A stretch of 64,000 nt of DNA, taken from positions 83,423 through 147,422 of the forward strand of contig JBAZZP010000003.1 in NCBI GenBank assembly GCA_041658745.1. The letters are read 5' to 3'. Position numbers and translations under genes: made by a program. Below, one piece after another: positions 1 to 62,286 of this stretch (position 1 is its first letter; each line of letters starts with the position of its first letter). Source of the DNA: Candidatus Margulisiibacteriota bacterium (lineage in GTDB: Bacteria > Margulisbacteria > WOR-1 > O2-12-FULL-45-9). A model generated the notes under the pieces. That model saw only the letters and a list, made by a program, of their open reading frames with translations, had not been told where the DNA came from and did not search any database.

Positions 1-142
1 AAACAATCATCCCACAAAAGATAAACTGCAAATCTTGCTCAGAGAAATCAAACCTTTGGCTGGAAAAATAAAAAGAAAATACTAGTAGTCCAAGAACAAC
101 AAAAGCATTAAAAGCGGCAAATAATTTATAGGGTATTTTCAT
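1..142 (-). CDS. hypothetical protein, N-terminal fragment (continues past left edge)
   Basis: ATG at 142-140 overlaps the stop of the upstream ORF (TAATG). The frame stays open to position 1. Translation MKIPYKLFAAFNAFVVLGLLVFSFYF.. has a hydrophobic N-terminal helix. Confidence 0.3.
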   Translation of the reverse strand, partial: MKIPYKLFAAFNAFVVLGLLVFSFYFSSQRFDFSEQDLQFIFCGMIV

Positions 143-921
143 TATGGGATCCAAGGCACCTCCACGGTAATAACGGCTCCCGTACTAGCATTAATTTCGC
201 AGCGGGCAAACTCAGATTGAGCATTATAATCAAAAATAATTTGCCATATAGCATCACCGCCTAGCGTTAATGGGGAACTTAACCGAAAAACATCAAGAAA
301 CGGTTCAGTCTTTCCACTTTCCCAGCTAGCAACCAGTGGAATATTCCTAAAAATGGCAATTGCTTGCGTGCTGTCGATCGGCCAAGTTTCTAAGCTATTG
401 GAAAACGAAGGATAAAAATTAATATAAAGTTCATTTAATTTTGCAGAGTCTGTTTCGGGATATCGATAAGCGCCTCCGTCCACTCTAATTACCTCAAAAG
501 TTACTCCATCACTATAACAAAAATCCCAGTTTTCCGCAGTGGACACGACCGTTCCGCTTCCATGTTGCTCAGAAAGCCAGGCTTTTACTCCTACCAAGTG
601 ATATCCATCTGGGACAAGCCCCCAAGGTTCGCCCATTATATAACACCATCTTAGTCCGCCTACGGCAATAGTGGAAGTAGTCATCCCAGTTGTGGTGCTC
701 GTACTAGTTGTACTCGTCGAGGTCGAAGTTGTGCTCGTTGTGGTTGAAGTGGTTGTCTCGGTTGTTGTGGAAGTGCTGGAAGTGGAGGTTTCAGTTGAGG
801 TTGTAGCTGTGCTGGTTGTAGTAGTAGAAGTAGTAGCTCCGCAACCCATCCCAAACAAAACCAACAGAATAAAAAGGAACCCAAACGAACTAAAAAAAAC
901 TAAACCATTGTTTTTATACAT
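142..921 (-). CDS. putative lipoprotein with Thr/Ser-rich linker and C-terminal domain of unknown function
   Basis: 259-aa ORF. Signal peptide ends in a lipobox-like LFGMGC. A ~55-residue T/S run is encoded at about 671-840. No catalytic motif recognised. Confidence 0.6.
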   Translation of the reverse strand: MYKNNGLVFFSSFGFLFILLVLFGMGCGATTSTTTTSTATTSTETSTSSTSTTTETTTSTTTSTTSTSTSTTSTSTTTGMTTSTIAVGGLRWCYIMGEPWGLVPDGYHLVGVKAWLSEQHGSGTVVSTAENWDFCYSDGVTFEVIRVDGGAYRYPETDSAKLNELYINFYPSFSNSLETWPIDSTQAIAIFRNIPLVASWESGKTEPFLDVFRLSSPLTLGGDAIWQIIFDYNAQSEFARCEINASTGAVITVEVPWIP

Positions 922-933
922 CTTTTATTTCCT

Positions 934-2115
934 TCAGCTGAATAGATTTTTTAAAAGCTGGCTTCCTCGCACAATCTTCAACTTCGCCTTCCTCGCCTCT
1001 TTCTCATTATACCCCTGAATGCCTTTCCTTGCCATTCCTTGCCCTCCCTTGCCATCATAAATTACGAAAGGCACATCGTCCGCCGTATGTGTCATGTATT
1101 TGATCGGGGTTGGATGATCAGGAAGAACGAGTATCCGGGTATCCGGGGATCCGGGGATCAGGGAATGGTTTAATATATTCCCCACAACATATTTATCAAA
1201 ATCCTCAATCGCTTTAATTTTATGTTTAATATTGCCTTCATGACCGGCTTCGTCGGGCGCTTCAACGTGAACAAAGACAACATCGTGCTTTTTTAGTGCT
1301 CTCAGAGCAGCCTTTGCTTTCCCCACATAATTAGTATCTAAATAGCCGGTTGCTCCTGGGACTTTGATGACTTCAAGTCCAATAATTTTGCCAATTCCTT
1401 TTAGCAAGCCAACAGCAGTTATAATTGCTCCGCTTTTCCCAAATTGTTTTTTAAAAGTCGGCATCGTTGGCGCAGTTCCCTGCCCCCACAACCAAATCAT
1501 GTTAGCTTTTGACTTTAAATCATGCAGAATAACTTCGCCTTCGTTCATCAAGCGCAAAATAGCTTCAGACCCCTTCCCTTTCGGTAAATAATCGTGGATG
1601 CATTGGCCGGTGATGTCATGAGGTGGGGTAGTACCAACATTTGACATTTGACATTTGTCATTTGTCATTATCGTCATGATATGGCGATAGCTAACTCCAG
1701 TGTAAAAGCAAACATCTTTGCTTCCCAACTTCGCATTGAGTTGACGAATTATTTTGTCCGCTTCCTTGGTAGAAATGTGTCCAGCCGTGAAATCTTTCAT
1801 CTTGCCGTCTTTAACGGTCACCAGGTTGCAGCGGAAGGCTAATTCATTGTTCCGCAGTTTAATTCCCAGACTAGCAGCTTCGAGTGGTCCTCTACCCGAA
1901 TAATACTTTTTGGGATCGTAACCAAAAATGCTCATAGCAGCAACGTCAGATCCGGGCGGCATTTTGGGCGGAACGTTATTGGTCCAACCAACAAGGCCAT
2001 TGCGGGCCATAAAATCCAAGTTGGGGGTTTTGGCAACTTCAAGGGGAGTTTTCCCTCCCAAAGCTTTGAGTGGCAGATCGGACATTCCATCGCCGATGAG
2101 AACTAAATACTTCAT
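934..2115 (-). CDS. apgM: cofactor-independent phosphoglycerate mutase, archaeal type
   Basis: 393 aa. N-terminus MKYLVLIGDGMSDLP..GGKTPLEVAKTPNLDFMA, plus PPHD and VLPDHPTP..HTADDVPF motifs typical of ApgM. Confidence 0.85.
   Translation of the reverse strand: MKYLVLIGDGMSDLPLKALGGKTPLEVAKTPNLDFMARNGLVGWTNNVPPKMPPGSDVAAMSIFGYDPKKYYSGRGPLEAASLGIKLRNNELAFRCNLVTVKDGKMKDFTAGHISTKEADKIIRQLNAKLGSKDVCFYTGVSYRHIMTIMTNDKCQMSNVGTTPPHDITGQCIHDYLPKGKGSEAILRLMNEGEVILHDLKSKANMIWLWGQGTAPTMPTFKKQFGKSGAIITAVGLLKGIGKIIGLEVIKVPGATGYLDTNYVGKAKAALRALKKHDVVFVHVEAPDEAGHEGNIKHKIKAIEDFDKYVVGNILNHSLIPGSPDTRILVLPDHPTPIKYMTHTADDVPFVIYDGKGGQGMARKGIQGYNEKEARKAKLKIVRGSQLLKNLFS
1021..1056. repeat. decamer array GCCNTTCCTT (3.6 units) inside apgM
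   Basis: Reads gcctttcctt gccattcctt gccctccctt gccatc. It encodes ..DGKGGQGMARKG.. and belongs to the same family as 47901-47946. Confidence 0.8.
1133..1164. repeat. 4 x octamer array ATCCGGGN inside apgM
   Basis: Reads atccgggt atccgggg atccgggg atcaggga. On the coding strand it encodes ..SLIPGSPDTRIL.. Confidence 0.8.
1641..1677. repeat. heptamer array TTGNCAT x4 plus TATCGTCAT inside apgM
   Basis: Reads ttgacat ttgacat ttgtcat ttgtcat tatcgtcat. It encodes ..MTIMTNDKCQMSN.. Confidence 0.8.
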
Positions 2116-5141: not shown

Positions 5142-5207
5142 TTTCGACACCATTCCTCGTAATTTACCCGCAAATAGCTTGGCAATAACATTGCTGGGTT
5201 GCTAAGC

Positions 5208-6209
5208 ATGCATTCATATCGCGAAACGCCCGCTCTATTAGATGAGATTATTGCACAGGCAATTTCCCAAAATGCATCTGATATCCATTTAGAGCCGCAC
5301 GAGAATCATCTTAAAGTGCGTTATCGAGTGGACGGGCTTCTGCAAGAAGGAGCCTCTGTTCCCAAGATAAAACAAGCATCGCTTACTTCCCGCCTTAAAG
5401 TGATGGTTAACCTCGATATCGCCGAAAGCCGACAACCGCAAGACGGAAGAACCAATCTGCAAATTAACAAAACAGCCTTTGATGTTCGGGTATCCACCAT
5501 TCCAACGATACATGGCGAAAAAGTAGTTATGCGACTGCTCAACCGCCAGCATGCCGCCCTGAAAATTGACGAGTTAGGGATGGAAAAAGAGGATTTAATA
5601 AAATATGAGAGGATGTTAAAGAAAAGAAGCGGAATAATTTTGGTAACTGGCCCAACGGGATCAGGCAAAACGACCACCCTCTACGCCACACTGTCCTATC
5701 TAAATTCGAAAGAGATAAACATCACGACCATTGAAGATCCGGTAGAATACCAATTGACAGGAATCAACCAAATTCAAATTAATCCAAAGGCAGGATTAAC
5801 TTTTGCTCGCGGGTTGCGCTCTATTTTGCGCCAAGATCCTGACGTTATCATGGTTGGTGAAATTCGCGATTTGGAAACGGCCAAGATCGCCCTACAAGCA
5901 GCGCTAACTGGGCATTTAGTCTTTTCAACCCTGCATACCAATGATGCGACATCAACCATTTGTCGTCTAATCGACATAGGGATCGAAAAATATTTAATCG
6001 AGTCAACCATTGTTGGAGTAATTGCGCAAAGACTAGTGCGCAAGAGAACTAGTGAGGGATATAAGGGACGCATTGGAATCTACGAAGTAATGGAAGGCAT
6101 CCAATCAAACACTGACATGTCTTCTCTTGCACAGAACGGAGAATTAAAAGTAGCACAGGGAATAACCACTAAAGAAGAATTAGCTCGCGTGCTTTATCTC
6201 GAACATTAA
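5208..6209 (+). CDS. compact GspE/PilB-family type II/IV secretion ATPase (core only)
   Basis: Motifs SDIHLEP..LKVRYRVDGLL, Walker A GPTGSGKTT, Asp box and His box TGHLVFSTLHTND. It lacks the N-terminal domains and the C-terminal tetracysteine motif. Confidence 0.8.
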   Translation: MHSYRETPALLDEIIAQAISQNASDIHLEPHENHLKVRYRVDGLLQEGASVPKIKQASLTSRLKVMVNLDIAESRQPQDGRTNLQINKTAFDVRVSTIPTIHGEKVVMRLLNRQHAALKIDELGMEKEDLIKYERMLKKRSGIILVTGPTGSGKTTTLYATLSYLNSKEINITTIEDPVEYQLTGINQIQINPKAGLTFARGLRSILRQDPDVIMVGEIRDLETAKIALQAALTGHLVFSTLHTNDATSTICRLIDIGIEKYLIESTIVGVIAQRLVRKRTSEGYKGRIGIYEVMEGIQSNTDMSSLAQNGELKVAQGITTKEELARVLYLEH

Positions 6210-6553
6210 CCACCACCGCCACCACCACCGCCGCCTCCGCCACCGGCCCCACCTCCAGCCCCTGCTCCTCCACCAGCTCCAGCTCCACCACTAGAACCAA
6301 CTCCTGGTCCTCCTCCCATATGCGCAAGAAGCGAAATAGCCAAAGCTTTGACATGTTGAAACAGGTTTTTCATGACATTGGTTTCTTGCAAAATTTGAAC
6401 CCGTGGGCATCTTTCGCAGAATTTAAACTCGGCCTTTAGCGGATTACAGGCAGCTTCTGGATAATAAATGCACTTTTTAAACCCTTCTTTTCTACGCTTC
6501 ATTTCTTTAGGGCTAATCAGCTTATTTGCCTCATCAATCTTATTTATTTCCAT
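6206..6553 (-). CDS. small Cys4 protein with hydrophobic helix and C-terminal Gly/Ala tail ending in G12
   Basis: 115-aa ORF. Cys pattern is C-x7-C-x9-C-x2-C, followed by NVMKNLFQHVKALAISLLAHM and then GGGPGVGSSGGAGAGGGAGAGGGAGGGGGGGGGGGG. Mixed GGT/GGC/GGA codons are used. Confidence 0.5.
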   Translation of the reverse strand: MEINKIDEANKLISPKEMKRRKEGFKKCIYYPEAACNPLKAEFKFCERCPRVQILQETNVMKNLFQHVKALAISLLAHMGGGPGVGSSGGAGAGGGAGAGGGAGGGGGGGGGGGG

Positions 6554-11768: not shown

Positions 11769-12671
11769 ATGCAAACCATTATCCTTTTAGGTCCTACTGC
11801 CGTTGGAAAATCAAAAGCGGCCGTTGAGCTCGCCCTTCAAATCAACGGCGAGATAATTTCCGCCGATTCGATGCAAGTCTATCGCGGCATGGATATTGGG
11901 ACCGCCAAACCGACCAAAGAAGAACAAAAAGGCATTCCCCACCACCTAATTGATATTCGCAACCCTGAAGAAAGCTGGACAGTCTCTGATTTTGTCGAAC
12001 AATCCAACCATCTAACCATCCAACTCTCCTCAAAAGGCAAAACGCCAATCATTGTGGGAGGCACGGGACTCTATTTATGGACCCTAATTAATGGCTATAA
12101 CTTTGCCGGAATTAAATCGGATGAAGCCATCCGGAAACGATTAGAGGAGCTTCCTCCCTCTACGCTCTATGCTCAACTTTCTACGGTCGATCCCCTTTCT
12201 GCCCAAAAAATCCATCCCCACAACAAAAAAAGAGTTATGCGGGCATTGGAAGTGTTTGAATTAACCGGGGAACCGATTTCGAAGCAGCAAGAAAAATTGG
12301 CAAACGGCAAACAGCTAACAGCAACCATTATCGGATTAACTCTGCCTCGCAACCAACTTTACGAACACATCGAACAGCGAATAGAAAATATGATAAAAGC
12401 GGGACTAATTGATGAAGTCAAAGGACTTCTAGACAAGGGATATTCGAAAGGGCTTACTTCTATGCAAGCCCTGGGATATAAAGAAGTGGTTGAATTTTTA
12501 GAGGGACGATGGGATCGAGAAAAATTGATCTATGAGCTCAAAAAACGCACTCGCCACTTTGCCCGCCGGCAAATGACCTGGTTTAGACGCTTCAGAAACG
12601 TTCAATGGATCGATGCAACCCCTGAAAATTTGAATAATCTGGCAAAGTTTGCTAGAATAGAGGAATGGTAA
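11769..12671 (+). CDS. miaA: tRNA dimethylallyltransferase
   Basis: Motifs LLGPTAVGKS, ISADSMQVYRGMDIGTAKPT and RRQMTWFR. Confidence 0.92.
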   Translation: MQTIILLGPTAVGKSKAAVELALQINGEIISADSMQVYRGMDIGTAKPTKEEQKGIPHHLIDIRNPEESWTVSDFVEQSNHLTIQLSSKGKTPIIVGGTGLYLWTLINGYNFAGIKSDEAIRKRLEELPPSTLYAQLSTVDPLSAQKIHPHNKKRVMRALEVFELTGEPISKQQEKLANGKQLTATIIGLTLPRNQLYEHIEQRIENMIKAGLIDEVKGLLDKGYSKGLTSMQALGYKEVVEFLEGRWDREKLIYELKKRTRHFARRQMTWFRRFRNVQWIDATPENLNNLAKFARIEEW

Positions 12672-22804: not shown

Positions 22805-23269
22805 TTAAAAAGGTATTTCGTCAATTTCTTTACTCTCGTCCCCTTCAATGGCCATTACGGGCCCTTTCTTCCCTTCCTCTCCCTCATGGGCCTTCACGGG
22901 CCCTTTGTCCCCCTCTTCTCTTTTTCCCAACATTTGGATATTATCCGCGATAACTTCGACCATGCTTCTTTTTTCGCCATCTCGTCCCACAAAATTACTG
23001 ACCTGCAGCCGGCCTTCTACCGCCACCGGTCGGCCTTTTTTAAGGTATTCGCCCACAATTTCGGCGGTTCTTCTCCATGCAACAATATTTATAAAATCCA
23101 CATCCTGGTTGGCAGATGAAGAATCATGCCCCGTAGCTTCTTGGGATTCTTCCTTGCGTTTAAACCGGTTTACCGCAACCGTAAAACGACAGACAGGAAT
23201 CCCCGAAGTGGTATAGCGAAGCTCCGGATCCCTCGTTAAATTCCCAATTATAAAAACTTTATTATACAT
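22805..23269 (-). CDS. ssb: single-stranded DNA-binding protein (paralogue 2, with internal 13-aa tandem duplication)
   Basis: OB fold MYNKVFIIGNLTRDPELRYT..CRFTVAVNR..FINIVAWR, with the acidic tip DEIPF. Confidence 0.85.
   Translation of the reverse strand: MYNKVFIIGNLTRDPELRYTTSGIPVCRFTVAVNRFKRKEESQEATGHDSSSANQDVDFINIVAWRRTAEIVGEYLKKGRPVAVEGRLQVSNFVGRDGEKRSMVEVIADNIQMLGKREEGDKGPVKAHEGEEGKKGPVMAIEGDESKEIDEIPF
22841..22918. repeat. 2 x 39-nt tandem duplication inside ssb paralogue 2
   Basis: It encodes EEGDKGPVKAHEG / EEGKKGPVMAIEG. An exact 14-mer, ccctcatgggcctt (22881-22894), recurs intergenically at 23298-23311. Confidence 0.7.
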
Positions 23270-23314
23270 GCCATATACCCTTAATCGCCTTTATGGGCCC
23301 TCATGGGCCTTTTA

Positions 23315-35525: not shown

Positions 35526-37154
35526 ATGCAGCCAGAGCCAACCATTAAAATCCTCACCGAAGAACTAATCAACAAAATCGCTGCCGGAGAAGTGGTTGAG
35601 AGACCAGCCGCTGCGGTTAAAGAATTGGTTGAGAACTCGATTGACGCCGGCGCATCCAAAGTAAGCGTTGAAATTCAAGCAGCTGGCAGTAAACTAATCC
35701 GCGTTGCCGATAACGGCCGGGGAATGAGCCAAGAAGATTTAACTCTTGCGGTCCAACGCCATGCCACTTCCAAAATTAGCACCTTGGAAGACTTATTTAA
35801 CATTCAAACCCTGGGCTTTCGCGGAGAAGCGCTCTCCTCCATTGCCGCGGTTTCAAAATTTGATATCGAACAAAATCCTTCAGGACAAGGCGTTACCGTT
35901 ACGGCCAAAGACTTATTTTACAACACTCCCGCCCGCAAAAAGTTTTTAAAATCACCCTCGACCGAAATGGGACACATTGGCGACGTAGTTTCCAAATACG
36001 CCATGGCCTACCCAGAAATTGCCTTTGAATTAATTGTGGATGGAAAACCCCTCTTGCAATCCCCTGGATCAGGAAAACTAAAAGATGCCGTCTTGTCGGT
36101 TTACGGCTTAGAACTAGTTAAAGACTTGATTGCAATCGAAGGTAAAATTAACAACATTAAGGTCTCGGGCCTCATTAGTTTGCCCACTCTAACCCGGGTG
36201 GATAAAAATTATGAGAATTTTTTTGTCAACCGTCGTTTTGTAAAAAACTTCTTACTCAACCGGGCACTTGAAGACGCTTATCGTACTTTAATTCCCAATA
36301 ATCGTTATCCTGCAGCTATTGTCTTTATCGATGTCGATCCCAAACAAATCGATGTTAACGTCCACCCCACTAAACGCGAAATAAAGTTTGCCAATAATCA
36401 GGCCGTAATGGAAGCTGTTCGCACGGTTGTTCAGCAAGCCTTAGGCAACAAAACTCCCATACTCCATACTCCAAACTCCAATCTCCATACTCATTCCCAC
36501 TGGGATCCTCCGTGCCAGAAATGGGAACCAAGCATGGCTGACGTTCTCTTTCCGGTAGAGTGTGCGACTGGTGAAAATCTTCCTTTAAGGCCTGTTAGCA
36601 CTTACAAAGATACCTACATTATTACCACTGATGGAGAAGACCTGGTAATGATCGATCAGCACGCGGCTCACGAACGAGTGTTATACGACCGGCTCACAGC
36701 TCACAGCTCACAGCAAGCCCACGTTGAACAACAAACTTTGTTATTGCCCGAAAATATTGAGTTGGATACAAAAAGTTATTCAACAACCAAGGCAAATTTA
36801 GATTTACTGCGTGAGCTAGGCTTTGATTTGGAAGAGTTTGGCGGAAATGCCTTAATTTTACGCGCTGTTCCATCAATCTCGTCCAAGCTTAACCCTAAAC
36901 AACTCTTACTAGATATCGTGGCCGAATTAGACAATCTCGGCAAAAGCGTTCAAACCGAAACCAAACAAGAAAATATCCGCAAATTAATCGCTTGCCATAG
37001 TGCAGTCAAAGCAGGGGATAAATTATCCGCTCTCGAAATTAACCAACTGATCAAAGACCTTTATGCAACCCAAAACCCCATGACCTGCCCACACGGTCGA
37101 CCAATCATGTTTCGGATGACCGAAAACGAAATTAAAAAGAAATTTGCCCGCTAG
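35526..37154 (+). CDS. mutL: DNA mismatch repair protein MutL
   Basis: Motifs INKIAAGEVVERPAAAVKELVENSIDAG, DNGRGM, GFRGEAL, and C-terminal DQHAAHER and CPHGRP. Confidence 0.92.
   Translation: MQPEPTIKILTEELINKIAAGEVVERPAAAVKELVENSIDAGASKVSVEIQAAGSKLIRVADNGRGMSQEDLTLAVQRHATSKISTLEDLFNIQTLGFRGEALSSIAAVSKFDIEQNPSGQGVTVTAKDLFYNTPARKKFLKSPSTEMGHIGDVVSKYAMAYPEIAFELIVDGKPLLQSPGSGKLKDAVLSVYGLELVKDLIAIEGKINNIKVSGLISLPTLTRVDKNYENFFVNRRFVKNFLLNRALEDAYRTLIPNNRYPAAIVFIDVDPKQIDVNVHPTKREIKFANNQAVMEAVRTVVQQALGNKTPILHTPNSNLHTHSHWDPPCQKWEPSMADVLFPVECATGENLPLRPVSTYKDTYIITTDGEDLVMIDQHAAHERVLYDRLTAHSSQQAHVEQQTLLLPENIELDTKSYSTTKANLDLLRELGFDLEEFGGNALILRAVPSISSKLNPKQLLLDIVAELDNLGKSVQTETKQENIRKLIACHSAVKAGDKLSALEINQLIKDLYATQNPMTCPHGRPIMFRMTENEIKKKFAR
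36453..36500. repeat. degenerate heptamer array (ACTCCAN x6) in the mutL linker
   Basis: Reads actcccat actccat actccaa actccaa tctccat actcatt, encoding ..TPILHTPNSNLHTHSH.. Confidence 0.75.
36692..36712. repeat. perfect (GCTCACA)x3 tandem heptamer in the mutL C-terminal domain
   Basis: Reads gctcaca gctcaca gctcaca. The 21 nt stay in frame and encode LTAHSSQ. Confidence 0.9.
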
Positions 37155-37253
37155 TGTAGGGGATCTCGACACTGCTGCTGTCTAAAAATCGTCGTTTTTG
37201 TTTTACTTAGCCTTGACCAGAGCTGATTAGGCTTGGCAATACAATTGCTAGGG

Positions 37254-37448
37254 ATTGAATATCTGGTGATCAGGAAATCTGGGAAGGGAGATCGGGGAAT
37301 CAGGATATCTGGATAGGGAAATCAAGACAGTAGAAAATTATAGATTTGAATAATTATTATGAAAATACGGTCTTAAAGGTTTATTTCCCCCTAATTTCCA
37401 GATGCCCGGATTCCCCTTTCCTGATTCCCCGATCCCCAGATACCCAAT
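37254..37448. repeat. 195-bp imperfect inverted repeat built from ATCNGGRN octamer arrays (MITE-like or cruciform-prone element)
   Basis: The left arm 37254-37322 and the reverse complement of the right arm 37383-37448 both read attgRRt-atctggNg-atcNggRa-..-agggRR-..-gggaaat. A 60-nt AT-rich spacer separates them. Confidence 0.7.
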
Positions 37449-37455
37449 AGCATAT

Positions 37456-37508: not shown

Positions 37509-39668
37509 ATGGCTAAGAAACAAACAAAATTAGTGATCGTTGAGTCTCCTTCTAAGGCCAACACCTTAAAGAAGTTCTTGGGGAGCGAATATACAGTAGA
37601 GGCCTCTGCCGGACATGTTATTGATCTTCCGCCAAAGTCGCTGGGAGTTAATGTTGAAAAAGACTTTACGCCAACCTACAAAACCATTAAAGGCAAAGAG
37701 AAAATCATCAAGCACTTGCAGGAAGCCGCCAAAAACGCCAGCGTAATTCTACTGGCTCCCGATCCGGATCGCGAAGGGGAAGCAATCGCATGGCACCTTT
37801 CAACAGCTCTGGGCAAAAACAAAAACATCAAACGAATAGAATTTCACGAAATCACCAAAGATGCCGTTCTATTTGCCGTTAAACATCCTAGAGAAATCGA
37901 TATGGATCGGGTCAATGCCCAGCAAGCCCGGCGAATACTGGATCGTTTGGTCGGTTACAAAATTAGCCCCCTCCTCTGGCGTAAAGTCCGCAAGGGTCTT
38001 TCGGCTGGCAGAGTCCAATCGGTGGCCGTCCGCTTAATTTGTGAACGCGAAGACCTAATCAATGCCTTTAAAGCTCAAGAATATTGGACTATTATTGCCA
38101 ATTTAGCAAACAATAGTAAAGTCGAGTTTTCTGCTCGTCTAATTTCCAAAGACGGGGAAGCCCTCGGTGGCCGCCCACAAGAAAAAACCAAAATTGTCGT
38201 TTCAGAGGCGGAAGCCAAACAAATTTTAAGTGAATTAGATGGGGCACAATATACTATTTCCCAAATTACCAAAAAAGAATCTCGCCGTTATCCCACCCCA
38301 CCCTTTATCACCAGTACGCTCCAGCAAGAAGCATCTCGCAAACTGGGCTTTTCAGCCAAAAGAACTATGATGCTGGCTCAGAAACTGTACGAAGGGATGG
38401 ATTTAAAAGACGAAGGCAGGCACGGCTTAATCACCTATATGCGTACCGACTCAGTCCGTATTGCCACCGAGGCCGAAACAGCCGTCCGCAAATATATTGT
38501 TGAAAATTTTGGCAAAGAATTTATTCCCGCTCAACCCCTTCACTACAAAAAAAAGAAACAGGCCCAAGATGCCCACGAAGCTATTCGCCCAACCTCTGTC
38601 CTGCGCTCTCCGGAGAAAATCAAAGAAAGCTTAGGGCCAGATGAATATAAACTATACGATTTGATTTGGAAAAGGTTTGTCGCCTGTCAGATGGAAGCCG
38701 CAATTTTTGATCAAACCGCCGCCGACATTGCGGCCAAAAACTATTTATTCCGCGCCAATGGATCAGTCATCAAATTTGAAGGATTTTTAAAAGTTTACAT
38801 GGAAAGCACCGATGAGGACACCCCACAAGAAACTGAAGGACTTTTACCCGAATTAAACGAAAAAGAATTACTAACATTATTAAAATTATTACCAGAACAA
38901 CATTTTACCGAACCGCCTGCCCGCTACAACGAAGCCTCCCTCGTCAAAGAACTGGAAAAAAGAGGGATTGGACGACCATCAACCTACGCCCCCATTATTG
39001 CTACTATCCAAGATCGCGGCTATGTTGAAAAAGAAGGGAAAGCTCTAAAGCCAACCGAAATTGGAGTAACAACCAACACCTTATTGGTGAAACATTTTCC
39101 ACAAATCCTGGACATCAAATTTACCGCCCAAATGGAAGATGAACTGGATGACGTGGCAGAAGCAAAAATTAACTGGGTTAAGGCCTTAAAAGACTTCTAT
39201 GAGCCATTTGCCGCTGCCCTTTCACTAGCTGAAGTAAAAATGGAGAAGGTAAAAAAAGAAATTGCCACTGACGAGGTTTGCCCTACCTGTGGCAAACCCC
39301 TTATTATCCGTGAAGGGCGCTATGGCAATTTTATTGCTTGCTCCGGCTACCCTAAATGCAAATATACAAAGCCCACCAAAGAGGACGAAGTAAAAGTAAC
39401 TGAGGTCTGTGAAAAATGCGGGAAACCGATGGTCATGAAGCATAGTCGTTTTGGCAGTTTTCTAGCTTGCTCTGGATATCCAAACTGCAAAAACACCAAA
39501 AATATCATAAAAAAGATAGACGCCAAATGTCCCAAGTGCGGTGGAGATATATCCGAAAGAAGGACTCGGCGCGGCAAGATCTTTTATGGCTGCAGCAACT
39601 GGCCCAAATGCGACTTTGCCACTTGGCAGCGGCCAGCTCCAGAAAAGAAAGAAGGGGAAAATGCTTAA
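37509..39668 (+). CDS. topA: DNA topoisomerase I
   Basis: Toprim N-terminus KLVIVESPSKA, active-site region YMRTDS, and three C-terminal C4 zinc ribbons (CPTCGKPL.., CEKCGKPM.., CPKCGG..). Confidence 0.93.
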   Translation: MAKKQTKLVIVESPSKANTLKKFLGSEYTVEASAGHVIDLPPKSLGVNVEKDFTPTYKTIKGKEKIIKHLQEAAKNASVILLAPDPDREGEAIAWHLSTALGKNKNIKRIEFHEITKDAVLFAVKHPREIDMDRVNAQQARRILDRLVGYKISPLLWRKVRKGLSAGRVQSVAVRLICEREDLINAFKAQEYWTIIANLANNSKVEFSARLISKDGEALGGRPQEKTKIVVSEAEAKQILSELDGAQYTISQITKKESRRYPTPPFITSTLQQEASRKLGFSAKRTMMLAQKLYEGMDLKDEGRHGLITYMRTDSVRIATEAETAVRKYIVENFGKEFIPAQPLHYKKKKQAQDAHEAIRPTSVLRSPEKIKESLGPDEYKLYDLIWKRFVACQMEAAIFDQTAADIAAKNYLFRANGSVIKFEGFLKVYMESTDEDTPQETEGLLPELNEKELLTLLKLLPEQHFTEPPARYNEASLVKELEKRGIGRPSTYAPIIATIQDRGYVEKEGKALKPTEIGVTTNTLLVKHFPQILDIKFTAQMEDELDDVAEAKINWVKALKDFYEPFAAALSLAEVKMEKVKKEIATDEVCPTCGKPLIIREGRYGNFIACSGYPKCKYTKPTKEDEVKVTEVCEKCGKPMVMKHSRFGSFLACSGYPNCKNTKNIIKKIDAKCPKCGGDISERRTRRGKIFYGCSNWPKCDFATWQRPAPEKKEGENA

Positions 39669-47631: not shown

Positions 47632-48486
47632 TTATACCAGCTTCAAATTTATATCCAGTGCCTTAGAGGAATGCGTTAGCTCGCCAATCGAAATAAAATC
47701 CACGCCAGTAGCGGCAATTTTCGCAACTGTTTTTAAATTTACTCCGCCAGACGCTTCGGTTTTTATCCCAGCCTCTTTGCATAATTTAACCGCTTGCCTT
47801 AGAGTTTTAATCTCCATATTATCTAAAAGTATCCTCCCAGCCCCCACTTCAATTGCTTCTTTGACTTCCCCTATTGTCTTTGCTTCAATTTCCGCCCTAA
47901 GCCCTCTCCATCTTCCCTTGCCCTTCCTTGCCTTTCCTTGCCCCTCAACTGCTTCAATCGCTTCTTTCACGCCTCCCGCCAAAGCAATGTGATTATCTTT
48001 AATTAACACAGCATCGTAAAGCCCCATCCGATGGTTAGTTCCGCCACCACACTTGACCGCGTACTTTTCCAAGGAACGTAATCCTGGGATCGTTTTTCGA
48101 GTATCTAGCACTTTGACCATCGACAATGGACCCTGGACTTTTGCAACGAATTTTGCCGTCAGCGTAGAAACCCCAGAAAGATGTTGCAGAAAATTTAACG
48201 CTACGCGCTCGCCCGTTAGTATCCCGCGAGCTGGCCCAGACAGTTCAGCTAAAATTGTCCCCGCCTTAACTAATTGGCCATCTCGGCATTTTGGAATAAA
48301 TTTAATTCTACAATCGATCTGCCGAAAAACCTCACGGGCAATGTCTATCCCCGCAATAACTCCGGCTTCTTTAGCGCGAATAACCGCTTTGGCAATTTTA
48401 TCTCTTGCCACAATCGCATTGGTCGTGATATCTCCCGTGCCAACGTCTTCTTTTAGCGCCGCTTTAATTATTTCAATATAACCCAT
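47632..48486 (-). CDS. nadC: nicotinate-nucleotide pyrophosphorylase (carboxylating)
   Basis: Motifs DVGTGDITT, LDTRKTIPGLR, GGG.NHR.GLYDAVLIKDNH and LLDNM. Confidence 0.9.
   Translation of the reverse strand: MGYIEIIKAALKEDVGTGDITTNAIVARDKIAKAVIRAKEAGVIAGIDIAREVFRQIDCRIKFIPKCRDGQLVKAGTILAELSGPARGILTGERVALNFLQHLSGVSTLTAKFVAKVQGPLSMVKVLDTRKTIPGLRSLEKYAVKCGGGTNHRMGLYDAVLIKDNHIALAGGVKEAIEAVEGQGKARKGKGRWRGLRAEIEAKTIGEVKEAIEVGAGRILLDNMEIKTLRQAVKLCKEAGIKTEASGGVNLKTVAKIAATGVDFISIGELTHSSKALDINLKLV
47901..47946. repeat. decamer array GCCYTTCCTT (about 4.5 units) inside nadC
   Basis: Reads gccctctcca tcttccctt gcccttcctt gcctttcctt gcccctc. It encodes ..EGQGKARKGKGRWRG.. and belongs to the same family as 1021-1056. 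Confidence 0.75.
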
Positions 48487-49274: not shown

Positions 49275-49980
49275 TCACCTGCTCTTTAGTTTTACCAAAT
49301 TTGCGTGTACGTTTCTGAAAATCTTCGATGGCAGCAATTAGTTGTTCCCGGCGAAAATCGGGCCAATAAGTAGGAGTCACATAAATTTCGGCATAGGCTA
49401 TTTGCCATAACAGAAAATTGGACACTCGCATCTCATTAGCAGTACGAATCAGCAGGTCAGGGTCAGGCATGTTTTTTGTGTATAGATATTGGGAAATTGT
49501 TTCCTCGTTTATTTCGTCATTTTTTAATTCGTCATTCGTCATTCGTTTACATGCATCTACTAGTTCGGCTCGCCCCCCATAATTAACCATTACATTTAAA
49601 GTGATGCGAGAATTGTTTTTGGTGGTTTCCATTGAGTTCTTCATTCTTTGTTGCAAGGCCAAAGAAAATTGTTCGAGCCGACCTAAGAAGTTAAGCTTAA
49701 CACTATTGGCCATCAAATCATCGATTTCACTATCAATGGTTTGCATAAAAAGATCCATTAAAAAATCAACTTCTTCTTGTGGTCTCCTCCAATTTTCGGT
49801 AGAAAAAGCATAGACGGTTAAATATTTTACGCCAAACTCAGCACAAGCCTTGAGGATTGCTCGAACAGATTCTGCTCCTTCTTTGTGGCCAGCAATGCGC
49901 GGCAGACCCTTTGCCTGCGCCCAACGCCCGTTCCCATCCATGATAATTGCAATGTGTTGAGGAATGTTATTGCGATCCAT
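49261..49980 (-). CDS. uppS: di-trans,poly-cis-undecaprenyl-diphosphate synthase
   Basis: Motifs HIAIIMDGNGRWA, AFSTENW.RP and RVSNFLLWQIAYAE. Confidence 0.92.
   Translation of the reverse strand: MDRNNIPQHIAIIMDGNGRWAQAKGLPRIAGHKEGAESVRAILKACAEFGVKYLTVYAFSTENWRRPQEEVDFLMDLFMQTIDSEIDDLMANSVKLNFLGRLEQFSLALQQRMKNSMETTKNNSRITLNVMVNYGGRAELVDACKRMTNDELKNDEINEETISQYLYTKNMPDPDLLIRTANEMRVSNFLLWQIAYAEIYVTPTYWPDFRREQLIAAIEDFQKRTRKFGKTKEQVSDVA
49513..49548. repeat. heptamer repeats TTCGTCA (1 + 3 tandem) inside uppS
   Basis: Reads ttcgtca(49513-19) .. ttcgtca ttcgtca ttcgttt(49528-48). It encodes KRMTNDELKNDEI. Confidence 0.75.
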
Positions 49981-52427: not shown

Positions 52428-54254
52428 GTGCCTCTCGAAACCACCCATTATCCTAAAGAATATGATGTAATCGTCATTGGCGCTGGGCATGCAGGAATTG
52501 AAGCTGCCTTGGCGGCAGCTCGCATGGGTTGTCAGACCTTACTCTTAACTATCAACCTTGATACGATTGCTTTTATGGCCTGTAATCCCGCCGTGGGGGG
52601 GCCGGCAAAAAGCCAATTAGTACGCGAAGTTGACGCTTTAGGCGGACAAATGGGAGTATCGACCGATTTAACTTTCTTGCAGATGAAAATGCTCAACACC
52701 ACCAAAGGCCCAGCGGTTCAAGCTTTGAGAGCCCAGTCTGACCGCAATTCCTATCACGTCACTATGAAACAGGTCCTCGAAGAACAAACCAATCTTGATC
52801 TAAAACAAGGGATTGTCGAAGAACTTCTTTCCGACTCACGCCCCCATACGCCCACCGATTCACCCGACGCAACCACCACCGCTAGACGCATTACGGGAGT
52901 CCGCACAAATCTCAACATGGTTTACTCAAGCAAAACCGTTGTGGTAACAACAGGAACGTTCCTCAATGGCATCGTTCACGTTGGAATGACCCACATGGAA
53001 GCCGGCCGAGCAGGAGAATTGCCCGCTAAAGGTATGTCTGAAAGTTTGGTAGCACTGGGATTAGAACTTGGAAGATTAAAAACCGGGACTCCAGCCCGAT
53101 TAAATAAACGCTCGATCGATTTTTCTAAAATGATCCCGCAGCCTGGCGACGAACCACCAAAAATGTTTTCATTTGTCTGGGAATATCAACAATACGGGTT
53201 ATCGGGGAATCCGATGATCGGGGGATCTGGGACAAATCAAATTCCTTGTCATTTAACCTGGACTACTCCTCAAACTCACGCAATTATCCGAGCAAATCTT
53301 GATCGTTCACCGTTATTTCAGGGGAAAATTAAAGGAACGGGGCCTCGCTATTGTCCGTCGATTGAAGATAAAGTTGTTCGCTTCCCTGAAAAAGATCGAC
53401 ATCAATGTTTCATTGAACCGTGCGGGAGAGACACGCTGGAAATGTACGCCCAAGGCATGAGCACCAGCCTTCCCGCCGATGTACAACTAGAAATGCTAAG
53501 AACTATGCCAGGGCTTGAAAATGTAGAAATGCTGCGGCCGGGATACGCCGTTGAGTATGATTACGTCAAGCCCTCTCAACTCTTGCCCACCTTAGAAACC
53601 AAACAGATTACTGGGTTGTTTTGTGCTGGACAAATTAACGGGACTTCGGGCTACGAAGAAGCGGCCGCGCAAGGAATTGTAGCGGGGATAAACGCCGCAC
53701 TTAAAGTTAAAGAGAAAGAGCCGCTCGTGCTGGGGAGAGAAAACTCATATATTGGAACTTTAATTGACGACCTAATCACCAAAGATATTGACGAGCCTTA
53801 TCGCATGTTAACTTCACGCTCCGAATATCGCTTGCTTCTGCGACAAGATAATGCCGACCTGCGGTTGACAGAAAAAGGTTATCAGGTTGGTTTAATTTCT
53901 AAAGAACGTTTTTCTAGTTTTCAGAAAAAGAAAGCGGCAGTTGAATCTGAAACAGTTATTTCCCCGGAAACAGAAGAACAAATCGCCATAACCAAAAAAT
54001 ATGCAGGCTATATAATGCGCCAATTGCAACAAATCGAGCGTTTTAAAAAACTGGAACACAAAAAATTGCCCTCGGATTTTGATTACTCGGAACTACGAGG
54101 ATTATCTAATGAGGCTCGAATTAAACTGGCCAAAATTCAACCCCTTTCCATCGGACAAGCCACCAGAATTGCGGGAGTTTCTCCAGCCGACATTTCTGTT
54201 TTGCTAATTCACCTTGAAACCCGTGGACGCTCAAAAGAATCTATGCTAAAATAA
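52428..54254 (+). CDS. mnmG: tRNA uridine 5-carboxymethylaminomethyl modification enzyme MnmG/GidA
   Basis: Motifs [35 protein letters not shown] and [16 protein letters not shown]. The start codon is non-ATG (GTG). Confidence 0.92.
53201..53232. repeat. 4 x octamer array ATCNGRNN inside mnmG
   Basis: Reads atcgggga atccgatg atcggggg atctggga. It encodes ..[12 protein letters not shown].. and belongs to the same family as 1133-1164 and the arms of 37254-37448. Confidence 0.75.
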
Positions 54255-55652: not shown

Positions 55653-56818
55653 AAATTGCCTTCTTTTCTAATTGCTACCTGCCCTATCTTAGCGGAATAA
55701 CGATTTCCATTAAGACTCTGCGAGAAAGCTTAGAAGCTCTAGGACACGAAGTTTTTGTGGTTGGACCAGAATATCCTAATTTTAAAGAAACCGATCGGCA
55801 CGTTTTACGCTTGCCTTCCATCCCAGCCCCCTACCCAGGCTATCGTTTTGTTTTTCCGTTTTCGGCCAAAGTTTTTAAGCAGCTGAAAGAAGAAAAGATC
55901 GATATTATCCATGCTCATCAGCCATTTGGAATCGGTCTTTCTGCTCTATATTTATCACGCAAATTACAAATCCCTTTAGTGTATACTTTTCACACTCTTT
56001 TCCCCCGTTATGTCCACAACGTTCCGTTCGTTCCGTCGGTAATTTCTAAAGCGATCACTGTTCGTTATCTCCGTTTCTTCTGCAATCAAGTAAATGCGGT
56101 GATCGCTCCGTCGACGATGGTTAAAAGATATTTAAAGATCTTAGGTGTAAAAAAACCAATCGAGGTTGTGCCAACGGGGGTTAATGTCGGAAAGATACAA
56201 GACACAAGGGACAAGGCACAAATATTATCCAAACATCAAATTCCAAATAATTCAAAAATACTCCTCTTTAGCGGGAGGATTTCGGAAGAGAAAAACATCT
56301 TGTTTCTTATAAAAGCATTCCCTTCTATTTTAGAAAAAGCTCCCGGCACATATCTTGTCCTGTGCGGTGGGGGACCAAAAGAGGCTGAATACCGAAAATT
56401 TGCTAAACAATTTACCGATCGGATTATTTTTGCCGGCCAAATCCCGCACACAGAATTAACCGCTTATTATCAGGCAGCCGATCTATTTGTTTATTCTTCA
56501 ATCTCAGAAACCCAAGGGCTGGTTTTATGCGAAGCTAAGGCTAATGGACTCCCCATTGTTGCCCTTTTTGGCGGAGGATTAACCGATGTGGTAGAAAGCG
56601 GGATTGACGGATATCTTGTTCCGCGCAATCCAGCCATTTTTGTTGAGCATGTGGTCCGTTTATTAAACGACGATCAATTACGCGCTAAAATGGCCACAAG
56701 GGCCAAAGAAGATGCACTAGCCCGCTTTTCACCAAAAACAGTCGCCAATAAAATGATTTCTGTTTACCAGAATTTAGCCGGCATACAGATTTGCATATCA
56801 AAAGATAGTGCTTTATAA
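55649..56818 (+). CDS. GT4-family (GT-B fold) glycosyltransferase
   Basis: N-terminus MKIAFFSNCYLPYLSGITISI and the C-terminal E-x7-E region SISETQGLVLCEAKANGLP. Confidence 0.8.
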   Translation: MKIAFFSNCYLPYLSGITISIKTLRESLEALGHEVFVVGPEYPNFKETDRHVLRLPSIPAPYPGYRFVFPFSAKVFKQLKEEKIDIIHAHQPFGIGLSALYLSRKLQIPLVYTFHTLFPRYVHNVPFVPSVISKAITVRYLRFFCNQVNAVIAPSTMVKRYLKILGVKKPIEVVPTGVNVGKIQDTRDKAQILSKHQIPNNSKILLFSGRISEEKNILFLIKAFPSILEKAPGTYLVLCGGGPKEAEYRKFAKQFTDRIIFAGQIPHTELTAYYQAADLFVYSSISETQGLVLCEAKANGLPIVALFGGGLTDVVESGIDGYLVPRNPAIFVEHVVRLLNDDQLRAKMATRAKEDALARFSPKTVANKMISVYQNLAGIQICISKDSAL

Positions 56819-57576: not shown

Positions 57577-58644
57577 ATGGAAGAATCTTTATTGCGCCCA
57601 CTGGTGAAAGAGATAAAAGACTACGTGCCTGGAAAAAACACTACCGAACCCGGCATGATCAAATTGGCGTCCAACGAAAATCCCTTTGGCCCTTCCCCTA
57701 AAGCCCTAGAGGCTATCGCCAAAGAAGCCTCGAAGTTACATGTTTATCCTGACCAAAAAGCTGTCCTGCTTCGAGACTCCCTTTCAAAAACTTTGGGAAT
57801 TGAAAGCGAAAAGATAATTGTTGGCAACGGCTCCGATGAAATCATGCAAATAGCAATTGCAACCTGCCTCAAGCCCGGCGAGGAAGTAATTATTTCTAGC
57901 AACACCTTTAGTGTTTATGAGTTTGTTACTCGCTTATTTGACGGCTTCCCGGTTTTTGTCCCACTTAATAATTACGAACAAGACTTGGACTCAATTCTCA
58001 AGGCAATTTCTCCTAAGACAAAGGCCATTTTTCTGTGCAACCCCCACAATCCGACCGGGACATATATCATCAATCAAAAACTAAACGCTTTTTTAACCAG
58101 TGTTCCAGACAATATTTTAGTGGTTGTCGACGAAGCCTATGCCGAGTTTGCAGAAGCAGCGGATTTTCCTTCTTCCCTAGAGCAAACCAAAAAGCATGGA
58201 CATGTTTTAATTTTGCGAACCTTTTCCAAATATTATGGTTTAGCCGGGTTACGAGTTGGCTACGGGGTTGCTTGTCCAGAATTGATTCACTATATGTTCC
58301 GTACCAAGTTGCCCTTTAATGTTGGCCGACTAGCTCAAGTTGGAGCCACTGCTGCCTTAGAGGATAAAGAATTCTTGGCTAAAACATTTCAAAACAATAG
58401 CTTAGGAAAAAAATATTTGTACGCCGAGCTAGATAAATTGGGATTGGACTACAAAAAAACTGAATCTAATTTTATTTTTATAAACATCAAAAAGTCGGCC
58501 GACGAAATGTTTATGGAATTAATGCGGGCGGGAATAATCATTCGCCCCCTTACTTCTTTTGGTTTGCCAGAAGCCATTCGGGTTTCAATTGGAACCCCGG
58601 AACAGAACGAAAAGCTAGTTTTTGCTTTCTCGCAAGCCTTTTGA
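57577..58644 (+). CDS. hisC: histidinol-phosphate aminotransferase
   Basis: Motifs KLASNENPFGPSP, NPHNPTG, DEAYAEF and RTFSKYYGLAGLRVGY. Confidence 0.92.
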   Translation: MEESLLRPLVKEIKDYVPGKNTTEPGMIKLASNENPFGPSPKALEAIAKEASKLHVYPDQKAVLLRDSLSKTLGIESEKIIVGNGSDEIMQIAIATCLKPGEEVIISSNTFSVYEFVTRLFDGFPVFVPLNNYEQDLDSILKAISPKTKAIFLCNPHNPTGTYIINQKLNAFLTSVPDNILVVVDEAYAEFAEAADFPSSLEQTKKHGHVLILRTFSKYYGLAGLRVGYGVACPELIHYMFRTKLPFNVGRLAQVGATAALEDKEFLAKTFQNNSLGKKYLYAELDKLGLDYKKTESNFIFINIKKSADEMFMELMRAGIIIRPLTSFGLPEAIRVSIGTPEQNEKLVFAFSQAF

Positions 58645-59298
58645 TGGCATTGGACTAGAAGGAGCTCCCGTACTTGCGGTTTCTTTTTTTTTGTTTTCTT
58701 TTGTTTTCATTGTTTCATATTTTGCCTTAACTGCTAATATTTCAGTCCGCGACTCAAAGGGCTTTTGGACTAATTTGTCTAAAGCAGGATATATTATTCT
58801 GTTCTCAACACTTTCACAACCAGGCGAAGCAGGCAATTTTTTGGCAGTTGTCGCCAAGGCTATTAATAGATTCCCCGCTTCCGCTAAAAAGCTTGGGGAA
58901 AAAGAGTTGTCCATGGCCACAATCAAATAACTAGCTACCTCCTCAACTGCGGACAGGATCAAATAGCTCTCATCTGCGGCCCCTTCTTTATAAGCAGCAT
59001 TGGCACATTCTGTCGCAATCTCCGACGCCAACAGAAGCAACGCCCTCTCTTGGCTCCTCTGCCGCACTGGGTTTGCATAAAAAGGAAAGTTGTTTTTCCC
59101 TTTTAATGCTGCTGAAGCGTAAAGTTCTAGCCGTTGATTTTCGCTTAGGTTCGTTGCTTTGTGGACATCATGCACAACTTCCAATAATTCCGTGGGGGAT
59201 TGTTTATGGCATATTCTACGGGCAAAAGAGTATTCGTTTTGTTGGCACCCAGAAAACGCCATCATTCCCAACATTACCGGCAAAAACCTAATTCTCAT
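58615..59298 (-). CDS. hypothetical lipoprotein
   Basis: Lipobox MLGMMAFSGC. 227 aa. Its 3' end overlaps the hisC 3' end by 30 nt (convergent). Confidence 0.55.
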   Translation of the reverse strand: MRIRFLPVMLGMMAFSGCQQNEYSFARRICHKQSPTELLEVVHDVHKATNLSENQRLELYASAALKGKNNFPFYANPVRQRSQERALLLLASEIATECANAAYKEGAADESYLILSAVEEVASYLIVAMDNSFSPSFLAEAGNLLIALATTAKKLPASPGCESVENRIIYPALDKLVQKPFESRTEILAVKAKYETMKTKENKKKETASTGAPSSPMPSKGLRESKN

Positions 59299-61209: not shown

Positions 61210-62286
61210 ATGTCCAAACAAACTCCCCTTTATTCCCAACATATAAAGCTTGGTGCCAAAATGGTTCCCTTTGGCGGCTGGGATATGCCGGTTTCGTATA
61301 AGGGCATCATTGAAGAGCACAATGCTACCCGCAAGGCGGCGGGACTGTTTGATATTGGCCATATGGGACTGATTAAAATTGAAGGCAAAGACGATCTGAC
61401 TTTTATCCAAAGTGTTGCTACCAATGATGCTTCCCTTTTGGCACTAAACGAATGCCAATATTCTATTCTTTGTACTCCTAGCGGTGGAGCAATTGACGAT
61501 ATTTTGGTTTACCGTTTACCGATGTTTTATATGATTATTTGCAATGCCTCTAATTTTGATAAAGTCATGGCATGGCTAACCGAAAAAGCAAAAGATTATT
61601 CTTCTTTAATTGTCGCGCCCTATGAAAATTATTGCGCTATCGCCCTGCAGGGCCCAAAAGCAATTTCGCTGACCGAAAAAACCCTAAAGGTTCCGCTTTC
61701 TTCTCTCAAACGCAACCATACGCTTTGGTGGCGCGATATTATTATCTCCCGCACCGGCTATACCGGCGAGGACGGGGTTGAAATGGTTATCGCCAAAAAT
61801 GAAGTGGCAAAGATTTGGGAAATGTTTATCGCAGCGGGAGCACAACCCTGCGGCCTGGGCGCACGCGACACCCTGCGGCTTGAAGCGGGGCTTCCACTTT
61901 ACGGACATGAATATAATGATCAGACCTCTCCGCTTGAAGTTGGTTATAGTTGGGCGGTAAAGTTGAACAAGGGAGAATTTGTTGGGCGAGAAGCATTGCT
62001 TAAACAAAAAGAGCAAGGATTAACAAAAAAGCTGGTTGGATTGGAAGTTGAGGGAAGGGCAATTGCAAGACAAGGGGGCGAAGTGTATGGTCAAGAGAAA
62101 GTAGAAAATGGAAAATTGAAAATAGGAACTGTATCGAGTGGAACGTTCTCCCCAACCCTGCAAAAACCAATTGCTTTGGCCTTCTTGGATCCAACACATG
62201 CCAAGATTGGAAACCTGGTCCAAGTTAAAATCCGCGAAAATTTCGCAAACGCTAAGATTGTTGCTAAATCGTTCTATAAGCGATAA
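61210..62286 (+). CDS. gcvT: glycine cleavage system aminomethyltransferase T
   Basis: MSKQTPLYSQHIKLGAKMVPFGGWDMPVSY.., with GYTGEDG. I prefer the ATG at 61210, because TATAAT lies at 61198-61203, 6 nt upstream. Confidence 0.92.
   Translation: MSKQTPLYSQHIKLGAKMVPFGGWDMPVSYKGIIEEHNATRKAAGLFDIGHMGLIKIEGKDDLTFIQSVATNDASLLALNECQYSILCTPSGGAIDDILVYRLPMFYMIICNASNFDKVMAWLTEKAKDYSSLIVAPYENYCAIALQGPKAISLTEKTLKVPLSSLKRNHTLWWRDIIISRTGYTGEDGVEMVIAKNEVAKIWEMFIAAGAQPCGLGARDTLRLEAGLPLYGHEYNDQTSPLEVGYSWAVKLNKGEFVGREALLKQKEQGLTKKLVGLEVEGRAIARQGGEVYGQEKVENGKLKIGTVSSGTFSPTLQKPIALAFLDPTHAKIGNLVQVKIRENFANAKIVAKSFYKR
62103..62123. repeat. 3 x tandem heptamer NGAAAAT inside gcvT
   Basis: Reads agaaaat ggaaaat tgaaaat. 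The 21 nt stay in frame and encode ..VENGKLKI.. Confidence 0.7.

Follow-up and report, generated by a model that had tools for sequence, protein, structure and literature searches.

Short tandem repeats with a unit length not divisible by three are usually seen as intergenic elements or as on/off switches, and earlier reports describe them as depleted in genes. The origin of the heptamer class of these repeats has been open since it was found in cyanobacteria in 1990. Here we describe such repeats in a 64,000-nt stretch (hereafter the window) from Candidatus Margulisiibacteriota, a lineage sibling to Cyanobacteria (assembly GCA_041658745.1, contig JBAZZP010000003.1, positions 83,423–147,422); the genome is ca. 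94% coding. A preliminary description had pointed to a decamer, which we write as GGCAAGGRRN, arrayed inside two unrelated housekeeping genes, apgM and nadC, and had proposed a small dispersed, possibly mobile repeat. Our results suggest a wider pattern. The decamers probably belong to a class of arrays in Margulisiibacteriota with units mostly of 7, but also of 8 and 10 bases, in about three to five copies, located in permissive surface loops of conserved proteins. A lineage-wide process that makes tandem arrays, filtered by reading frame and by loop tolerance, is in our judgement the likely source of this class.

Several described systems resemble parts of this pattern. The palindromic elements of Rickettsia, 100–150 bases long and present in many copies per genome, lie in frame in genes for conserved proteins and are tolerated at the protein surface. 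The cyanobacterial STRR heptamers and the broader class of long simple sequence repeats with 5–11-base units (LSSR5-11) consist of head-to-tail non-triplet units, with heptamers dominant, in many arrays of few copies each and with lineage-specific units; they are mainly intergenic, non-triplet units being rare in coding sequences (PMC4692102, PMC4679880), and a few units are common genome-wide. As cited in PMC4679880, Mrazek et al. (2007) described heptamers as the commonest 5–11-base repeats in bacteria, with polymerase-linked slippage as the proposed cause, and units located in genes as usually multiples of three. The GGGNATC repeats of Xanthomonas and Nostoc (Rehm et al. 2015, PMC4692102) are dispersed G-rich tandem units of about four copies; they fold into quadruplexes in vitro, with a preference for four units. 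TAACTGA of marine Beggiatoaceae is a single heptamer unit used genome-wide, mostly upstream of start codons; its few copies in open reading frames (ORFs) are in a stop-free orientation, encode a 7-residue repeat and mostly lie at protein ends (MacGregor 2015, PMC4679880). Finally, the small dispersed repeats (SDR) of Nostocaceae are very short multi-site repeats that are thought to be mobile and sometimes occur with heptamer arrays; their units of 21–27 bases have a conserved hairpin and have been reported only in Nostocaceae (PMC5861425). A literature search found no paper linking Margulisbacteria with tandem repeats.

The two decamer arrays and their host genes are as follows.

934..2115, minus strand: apgM, cofactor-independent phosphoglycerate mutase, 393 aa (PDB 2zkt, E = 4e-62; PF10143/PF01676).
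1020..1056, minus strand: decamer array 1 in apgM, coding strand GGCAAGGGAG GGCAAGGAAT GGCAAGGAAA GGCA, encoding GKGGQGMARKG (aa 354–366).
47632..48486, minus strand: nadC, quinolinate phosphoribosyltransferase, 284 aa (PDB 1x1o, E = 2e-71).
47901..47946, minus strand: decamer array 2 in nadC, coding strand GGCAAGGAAA GGCAAGGAAG GGCAAGGGAA GATGGAGAGG, encoding GQGKARKGKGRWRG (aa 181–196).

The window reads exactly as the preliminary description had quoted it for both arrays, the peptides given there (DGKGGQGMARKG and EGQGKARKGKGRWRG) are correct translations, and the best solved homologues, 2zkt for ApgM and 1x1o for NadC, fit two unrelated housekeeping genes; both lie on the minus strand. Tandem Repeats Finder (TRF) assigned a period of 10 to both, with 3.6 copies in array 1 (1020–1055) and 2.8 copies in array 2 (47916–47943), and like STRR/LSSR5-11 repeats both are head-to-tail runs of a 5–11-base unit longer than expected by chance. 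On the coding strand, the two arrays have GGGCAAGGAA[T/A]GGCAAGGAA[A/G]GGCA in common (23 of 25 bases) in an identical frame, encoding GQG(M/K)ARKG. No other distant pair of 25-mers in the window, on either strand, differed by two mismatches or fewer, and none was found in 20 codon-shuffled windows. The sequence GCCNTTCCTTGCC, with at most one mismatch, matched the window five times against 0.57 expected (none of 100 shuffles reached five), and all five matches were confined to the two array sites. Furthermore, the 23-base pattern GCCNTTCCTTGCCNTTCCTTGCC occurred in only 25 stretches among 596 billion bases (185,579 species genomes); therefore, two copies within 64 kb are far beyond chance.

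Alignment to orthologues and homologues bore out the proposal that the arrays are lineage-specific and lie in surface loops, since they fall at gaps in homologues, in variable loops and in modelled coil. The NadC array corresponds to a gap of 8–9 residues in every solved homologue in the PDB alignments, and among 62 close relatives the NadC loop of the query exceeds the modal length by 8 residues and the loops of P0006, P0002 and P0003 by 10–11 residues (P numbers denote orthologues). In the AlphaFold model of NadC (mean pLDDT 90.5), the array spans the end of helix 173–187 and the coil 188–198, with pLDDT < 50 at residues 190–195. At the ApgM array, the solved homologues are shorter by 4 residues, and 62 orthologues show a hypervariable loop, for which the model gives coil (354–370) with pLDDT of 74–79. 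The arrays fall in loops that differ from one orthologue to another and that are predicted to be coil, mostly at reduced model confidence.

The decamers are two of 14 window arrays detected by TRF with a period of 5–11 bases not divisible by three, at least 2.8 copies and no overlap, a pattern that the preliminary description had not covered. Codon shuffles gave an expectation of 0.5, and 14 of 14 lay inside ORFs and in frame. Eight of the arrays are heptamers, and apgM alone has three arrays, with periods of 10, 8 and 7. Besides apgM and nadC, the hosts were MiaA, an M23 peptidase, MutL (two arrays), UppS, RRF, a GT4 glycosyltransferase, GcvT and a protein without a Pfam match (58615–59298). 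Related repeats in SSB and MnmG fall outside the count of 14; including these, the named hosts are housekeeping genes (ApgM, NadC, MiaA, SSB, MutL, UppS, RRF, MnmG, GcvT, the M23 peptidase and the GT4 glycosyltransferase). The following repeats illustrate the class; all are TRF arrays except that in mnmG.

1133..1163, minus strand: octamer CCCCGGAT x 3.9 in apgM, encoding LIPGSPDTRI.
1637..1669, minus strand: heptamer TGACAAA/TGTCAAA x 4.7 in apgM, encoding MTNDKCQMSNV.
11998..12024, plus strand: octamer AACCATCC x 3.4 in miaA.
12300..12324, plus strand: heptamer GCAAACA x 3.6 in miaA.
36457..36492, plus strand: heptamer CCATACT x 5.1 in the mutL linker.
36692..36714, plus strand: heptamer GCTCACA x 3.3, perfect, in mutL.
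49527..49546, minus strand: heptamer GACGAAT x 2.9 in uppS.
53196..53222, plus strand: GGGGAATC/GATCGGGG-type repeat in mnmG, outside the TRF count.
56192..56221, plus strand: heptamer AAGACAC x 4.3 in the GT4 glycosyltransferase gene.
62104..62128, plus strand: heptamer GAAAATG x 3.4 in gcvT.

Compared with the systems introduced above, the STRR heptamers that had been offered as an analogy proved an apt one, with a host sibling to Cyanobacteria and a class in which heptamers dominate. The number of dispersed arrays (14 vs. 0.5), the head-to-tail non-triplet units, the few copies per array and the lineage-specific units are all STRR/LSSR5-11-like. In contrast to these mainly intergenic repeats, the arrays here are almost wholly intragenic and frame-preserving, and they are tied to fixed loops in which the unit turns over. 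Instead of a few units common genome-wide, the units seen here appear mostly to differ between sites: the decamer recurred at 2 loci in the window, and heptamer units were not shared beyond chance. With TAACTGA the class has in common heptamer units, a stop-free orientation in ORFs and 7-residue repeats; it differs in having many units and an internal position. The arrays also differ in host and position from phase-variable contingency repeats, in which the copy number of a non-triplet unit in an ORF turns a gene on or off, typically one for surface or restriction-modification functions: the hosts here are core enzymes (ApgM, NadC, UppS, RRF, SSB, MutL), and the arrays are short, internal and in frame. 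The likeness to Rickettsia palindromic elements lies in repeated DNA tolerated in frame at the protein surface; the arrays here are tandem and only 20–50 bases long, and the decamer arrays (28–46 bases) are not self-complementary. The analogy with SDR that had also been suggested fails on unit size and structure, the decamer having 10 bases and no hairpin. As for SDR-type insertion polymorphism, the arrays are lineage-specific, yet that in nadC has a heptamer precursor at its own site (see below), and only one other copy is known.

The gene mutL (35526–37154, plus strand), which encodes a mismatch-repair protein, itself carries two of the heptamer arrays. That at 36692–36714 lies in the C-terminal domain, and the linker with the array at 36457–36492 is ca. 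32 residues longer in the orthologue in related locus L100.

Related loci (L numbers; DNA fetched around orthologues from other Margulisbacteria) were compared with the window and with unrelated control loci, with expected values from shuffles. The control count was taken after removal of one array per locus, for which each locus had been chosen.

Window, 64 kb: 14 arrays, 0.5 expected.
L098: 7 arrays, 1.2 expected.
L100: 4 arrays, 0.07 expected.
L103: 7 arrays, 0.2 expected.
L101: 1 array, 0.17 expected.
L102: 0 arrays, 0.13 expected.
25 unrelated control loci, 191 kb: 9 arrays, 8.1 expected.

A clear excess was found in three of the five related loci (L098, L100 and L103), and the unrelated controls had none. 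The arrays in these relatives occupy the same loops as in the window with other units. In seven ApgM orthologues read as DNA, all three loops were tandem arrays whose unit differed each time, such as TTTCCAG x 4.4 in L101, ACGGGTT x 3.4 and AACATCC x 5.4 in L098, GTCATCC x 4.4 and ATCAAAGR x 4 in L100, TATCCGGN x 3.9 in L103, and a 9-base unit with a CAGGGC core in L107. At the loop of the octamer array 1133–1163, L103 has TATCCGGN and L100 has ATCAAAGR. Among 114 orthologues, ApgM loop 3 showed a 7-residue periodicity (lag-7 identity 0.149 vs. ca. 0.06). Loops of UppS, MnmG and MiaA are likewise arrays with other units in orthologues (e.g., GTAGAAA in UppS), and AroA and prephenate dehydrogenase carry arrays in both L098 and L103. 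Where the window has the GGGGAATC-type repeat, the mnmG orthologue in L106 (3354–5180) has an array of CCCTAGT, which is close to CCCCAGT, the classic cyanobacterial STRR1 unit. Many arrays are near-perfect, and several perfect, although their host genes are only ca. 65% identical between lineages, from which we infer that they are young or kept homogeneous.

As a separate observation, loop 2 of apgM in L107 contains an inserted perfect 14-base palindrome, GCCTGCCGGCAGGC, encoding PAGRQ, and similar peptides (ACRQAG, LPVRQAG) recur in different ApgM loops of orthologues P0151, P0174, P0204, P0230 and P0141. The palindrome and these peptides suggest a separate family of small palindromic inserts.

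Because the unit is out of codon register and relatives have other units at the same loops, the arrays are, in line with the preliminary description, repeats at the DNA level and not at the protein level. Protein-level selection for Gly/Lys loops was rejected as the main cause on the same register argument and on the unrelated peptides of orthologues at the same loop. A broader version of this idea, in which the arrays serve a nucleic-acid or peptide function (for example as a G-quadruplex, as a site in DNA or mRNA to which proteins bind, or as a flexible charged loop of the enzyme), seems highly improbable to us. The decamers do have many GG/GGG runs on the coding strand. Four G-runs (GGG/GGGG) lie opposite the octamer array of apgM, and this strand resembles the quadruplex-forming GGGNATC repeats (PMC4692102). 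In sequence, the GGGGATC(C)/GGGAATC units of the window (apgM, mnmG and 37256–37437) recall GGGNATC, a likeness limited at most to the octamer array 1133–1163 and the region 37256–37437; the decamer GGCAAGGRRN is a different unit. There is also one case of conservation at the nucleotide level: ATGACAAATGACAAATGTCAAATGTCAAATGT, 32 bases of the apgM heptamer array (1637–1669), is identical in apgM of P0168 (L098 10444–10476), although the two genes have 63% nucleotide identity (38% at third codon positions) and the next longest exact run is 11 bases. This sequence folds as a weak imperfect hairpin. However, most arrays lack G-runs (CAAATGT, TTTCCAG, AACATCC, CCATACT) and encode peptides of unrelated composition, the units of a given loop vary freely from one orthologue to the next, and the decamer loops combine reduced model confidence with inserted residues that are gaps in solved homologues.

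The relatives also bear on where the nadC decamer came from. In the corresponding NadC loop, P0008 has GGCAAGG GGCAAGC GGCAAGG GGCAAGA, P0004 has GGCAAGG GTCAGGG GGCAAGG GGCAAGG, and P0006 has a related core (TTAAGGG TCAAGGG TCAAGGA). Since relatives carry a (GGCAAGG)n-type heptamer array at this loop, the array appears to be old at the site and the decamer to have evolved in place, which speaks against a recent import from another site. The unit would have been re-registered from 7 to 10 bases (GGCAAGG plus AAR) in the query lineage, and the loop would have gained ca. 30 bases. Across 210 kb of DNA from Margulisbacteria, arrays of GCAAGG with at least three units were confined to the NadC loop, in three genomes, and to apgM of the query; in the 146 kb from related genomes, they were found at the orthologous NadC loop alone. 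The window and L107 each have one further, minor antisense match to GCAAGG, of two units.

These data weigh on the idea of a very small mobile repeat, in which a pre-formed array of ca. 30 bases or a unit family is copied to new sites by a dedicated or parasitic mechanism and survives only in tolerant loops. We regard this explanation as unlikely, and the mobility proposed earlier was not supported: there are only two decamer copies in 64 kb, none of the genomes scanned has many copies, no hairpin was found, and the nadC array has an ancestor in place. Among the 185,579 species genomes, none had several loci of GCCNTTCCTTGCCNTTCCTTGCC, each having one at most; none of the 25 scattered reference-genome hits came from Margulisbacteria, the source genome not being among the representatives. 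The pattern matched 70 stretches in JGI metagenomes, the source contig not being among them; those inspected were unrelated long satellites of GGAAA/GGCAA type, many at contig ends. No hairpin was detected in the decamer arrays (nadC array z = +1.14; in apgM, the fold is due to flanking bases and not to the array), on which ground a palindromic element was rejected, and no terminal repeat or flank similarity was found at the two sites. Heptamer units at non-orthologous sites resembled one another no more than expected from a null matched for composition (8 pairs vs. 5.3, P = 0.14), and genome-wide heptamer families were rejected on this basis. What stood of the earlier interpretation is the DNA-level, lineage-specific, loop-located and STRR-like nature of the arrays.

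On the side of mobility are the decamer itself, near-identical and in the same frame in two non-homologous genes, the insertions nested in the middle of heptamer arrays in P0141 and P0223 (extra ApgM residues at the centre of the array), the 32-base array identical in distant orthologues, and two other unit families. One is AAGGCCCRTG, which is found in the window as follows.

22836..22913, minus strand: two 39-base units containing AAGGCCCRTG in the disordered C-terminal tail of ssb, encoding KGPV(K/M)A(H/I)EG.
23287..23312, minus strand: intergenic copy of the AAGGCCCRTG family just upstream of ssb, AAGGCCCATG AGGGCCCATA AAGGC.

The same decamer was read as DNA in the ApgM loop of P0122 (L096 1094–1150), and the ApgM loops of P0123 and P0220 have the matching peptide PVKAHEG, from which the decamer is deduced. 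In SSB, the motif is restricted to the close clade of the query, with two copies in the query and in P0241 (97% SSB identity to the query), one in P0242 (85%) and none in the other relatives inspected. The other family is the GGGGATC-type octamer, found in apgM, in mnmG and twice in the intergenic region 37256–37437.

An independent convergence of the two decamers was also considered. Both loops would ancestrally have encoded Gly-Gln-Gly (GGN CAA GGN), and similar seeds would have been amplified locally without exchange. GQG or QG is indeed found at the NadC loop of many relatives and at ApgM loop 3 of P0128, P0129, P0135, P0138, P0143, P0150 and P0122; several relatives have QG repeats in loop 3, and that of P0122 opens with GGACAAGGG. 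In P0129, the ApgM loop is built of 9-base units around a CAGGGC core, the first unit reading CAAGGC, and a CAAGG core may already have been present at ApgM loop 3 beforehand. However, convergence needs the same 3-base extension (AAR), 10-base period and frame to arise twice in one genome, the decamer occurs at either loop in no other fetched genome, and the apgM/nadC pair is unique in the window. We therefore consider convergence quite improbable. Both arrays contain a GGCAAGG core, and they are located on one strand at a distance of 47 kb. Because the same decamer, period and frame occur in two genes of one genome, copying between the two arrays seems the simplest and a probable source of their identity.

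Some features of the window lie outside these comparisons. Between mutL and ORF 37509..39668, whose orthologue in L100 has topoisomerase I domains, the intergenic region 37240–37450 forms a long imperfect hairpin. Its arms consist of a run of ATCNGGNN octamer-like units and their inverted copy, with a minimum free energy of -71 kcal/mol and z = -3.6 (none of 200 shuffles folded as well), and it has no Rfam match. In ORF 142–921 (minus strand, 259 aa), the N-terminus is signal-like, and after it comes a long low-complexity stretch that is rich in Thr and Ser and is encoded by 21–24-base repeats (706–775). A CCACCACCG/CCAGCT-type block with periods of 9, 18 and 30 (6209–6291) lies inside ORF 6206..6553 (minus strand) and abuts the end of ORF 5199..6209 (plus strand); its minus-strand reading would give a Gly-rich tail. 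Searches of the window detected neither a tRNA nor any Rfam family.

The lineage-wide process that we favour could operate in the following steps. Short units would be amplified at the DNA level by replication slippage or template switching that favours ca. 7-base steps; because the genome is ca. 94% coding, most such events would land in genes. Selection would then keep length changes in multiples of three bases (three units give 21, 24 or 30 bases) and arrays without a stop codon in any frame, within tolerant loops. The process would be ongoing, or the arrays continually homogenised, as their near-perfect repetition within diverged host genes implies. The apgM loop would have taken up the nadC-like decamer by non-reciprocal copying between arrays with the frame kept, and the Gly/Lys/Arg peptide would be a by-product and not itself selected.

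Several points weigh against this explanation. Slippage needs more than one unit to start, and steps of one unit would put essential genes out of frame; the re-registration from 7 to 10 bases and the origin of a three-unit array are unobserved steps. The length of the ApgM loops is nearly constant across orthologues, with sharp modes at 17, 16 and 15 residues, while the units differ, and simple slippage does not predict such constancy. The identical 32-base array in divergent apgM genes points to nucleotide-level constraint or exchange, and not to neutral local turnover. The recurrence of two G-rich unit families at non-homologous sites hints at some form of dispersal. Furthermore, L101 and L102 have few or no arrays, and L098 and L099, both places for P0168, are identical over 21 kb, with no strain polymorphism seen there.

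Our results indicate that, across part of the phylum, non-triplet arrays are a normal encoding of the variable loops of core enzymes, in which the loops are re-used and the units change. If the process is ongoing, these bacteria would offer a tractable system in which to study the origin of heptamer-class repeats, and the arrays would provide a natural map of insertion-tolerant loops in ApgM, NadC, AroA, MutL and others. Alignments and trees of these uncultured lineages would then include blocks that do not evolve by point substitution. A bolder reading, which we hold to be possible but doubtful, is that an active mutational or copying process in Margulisbacteria, and possibly in their cyanobacterial relatives, continually rewrites permissive loops as arrays of 7–10-base units, with loop length held nearly constant, the unit turning over, and families sometimes copied between loci (from nadC to apgM, or from the tail of ssb to the loop of ApgM in relatives). 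If true, loop diversity in essential enzymes would be generated and maintained by a route not described before, and the cyanobacterial STRRs might have originated in this way.

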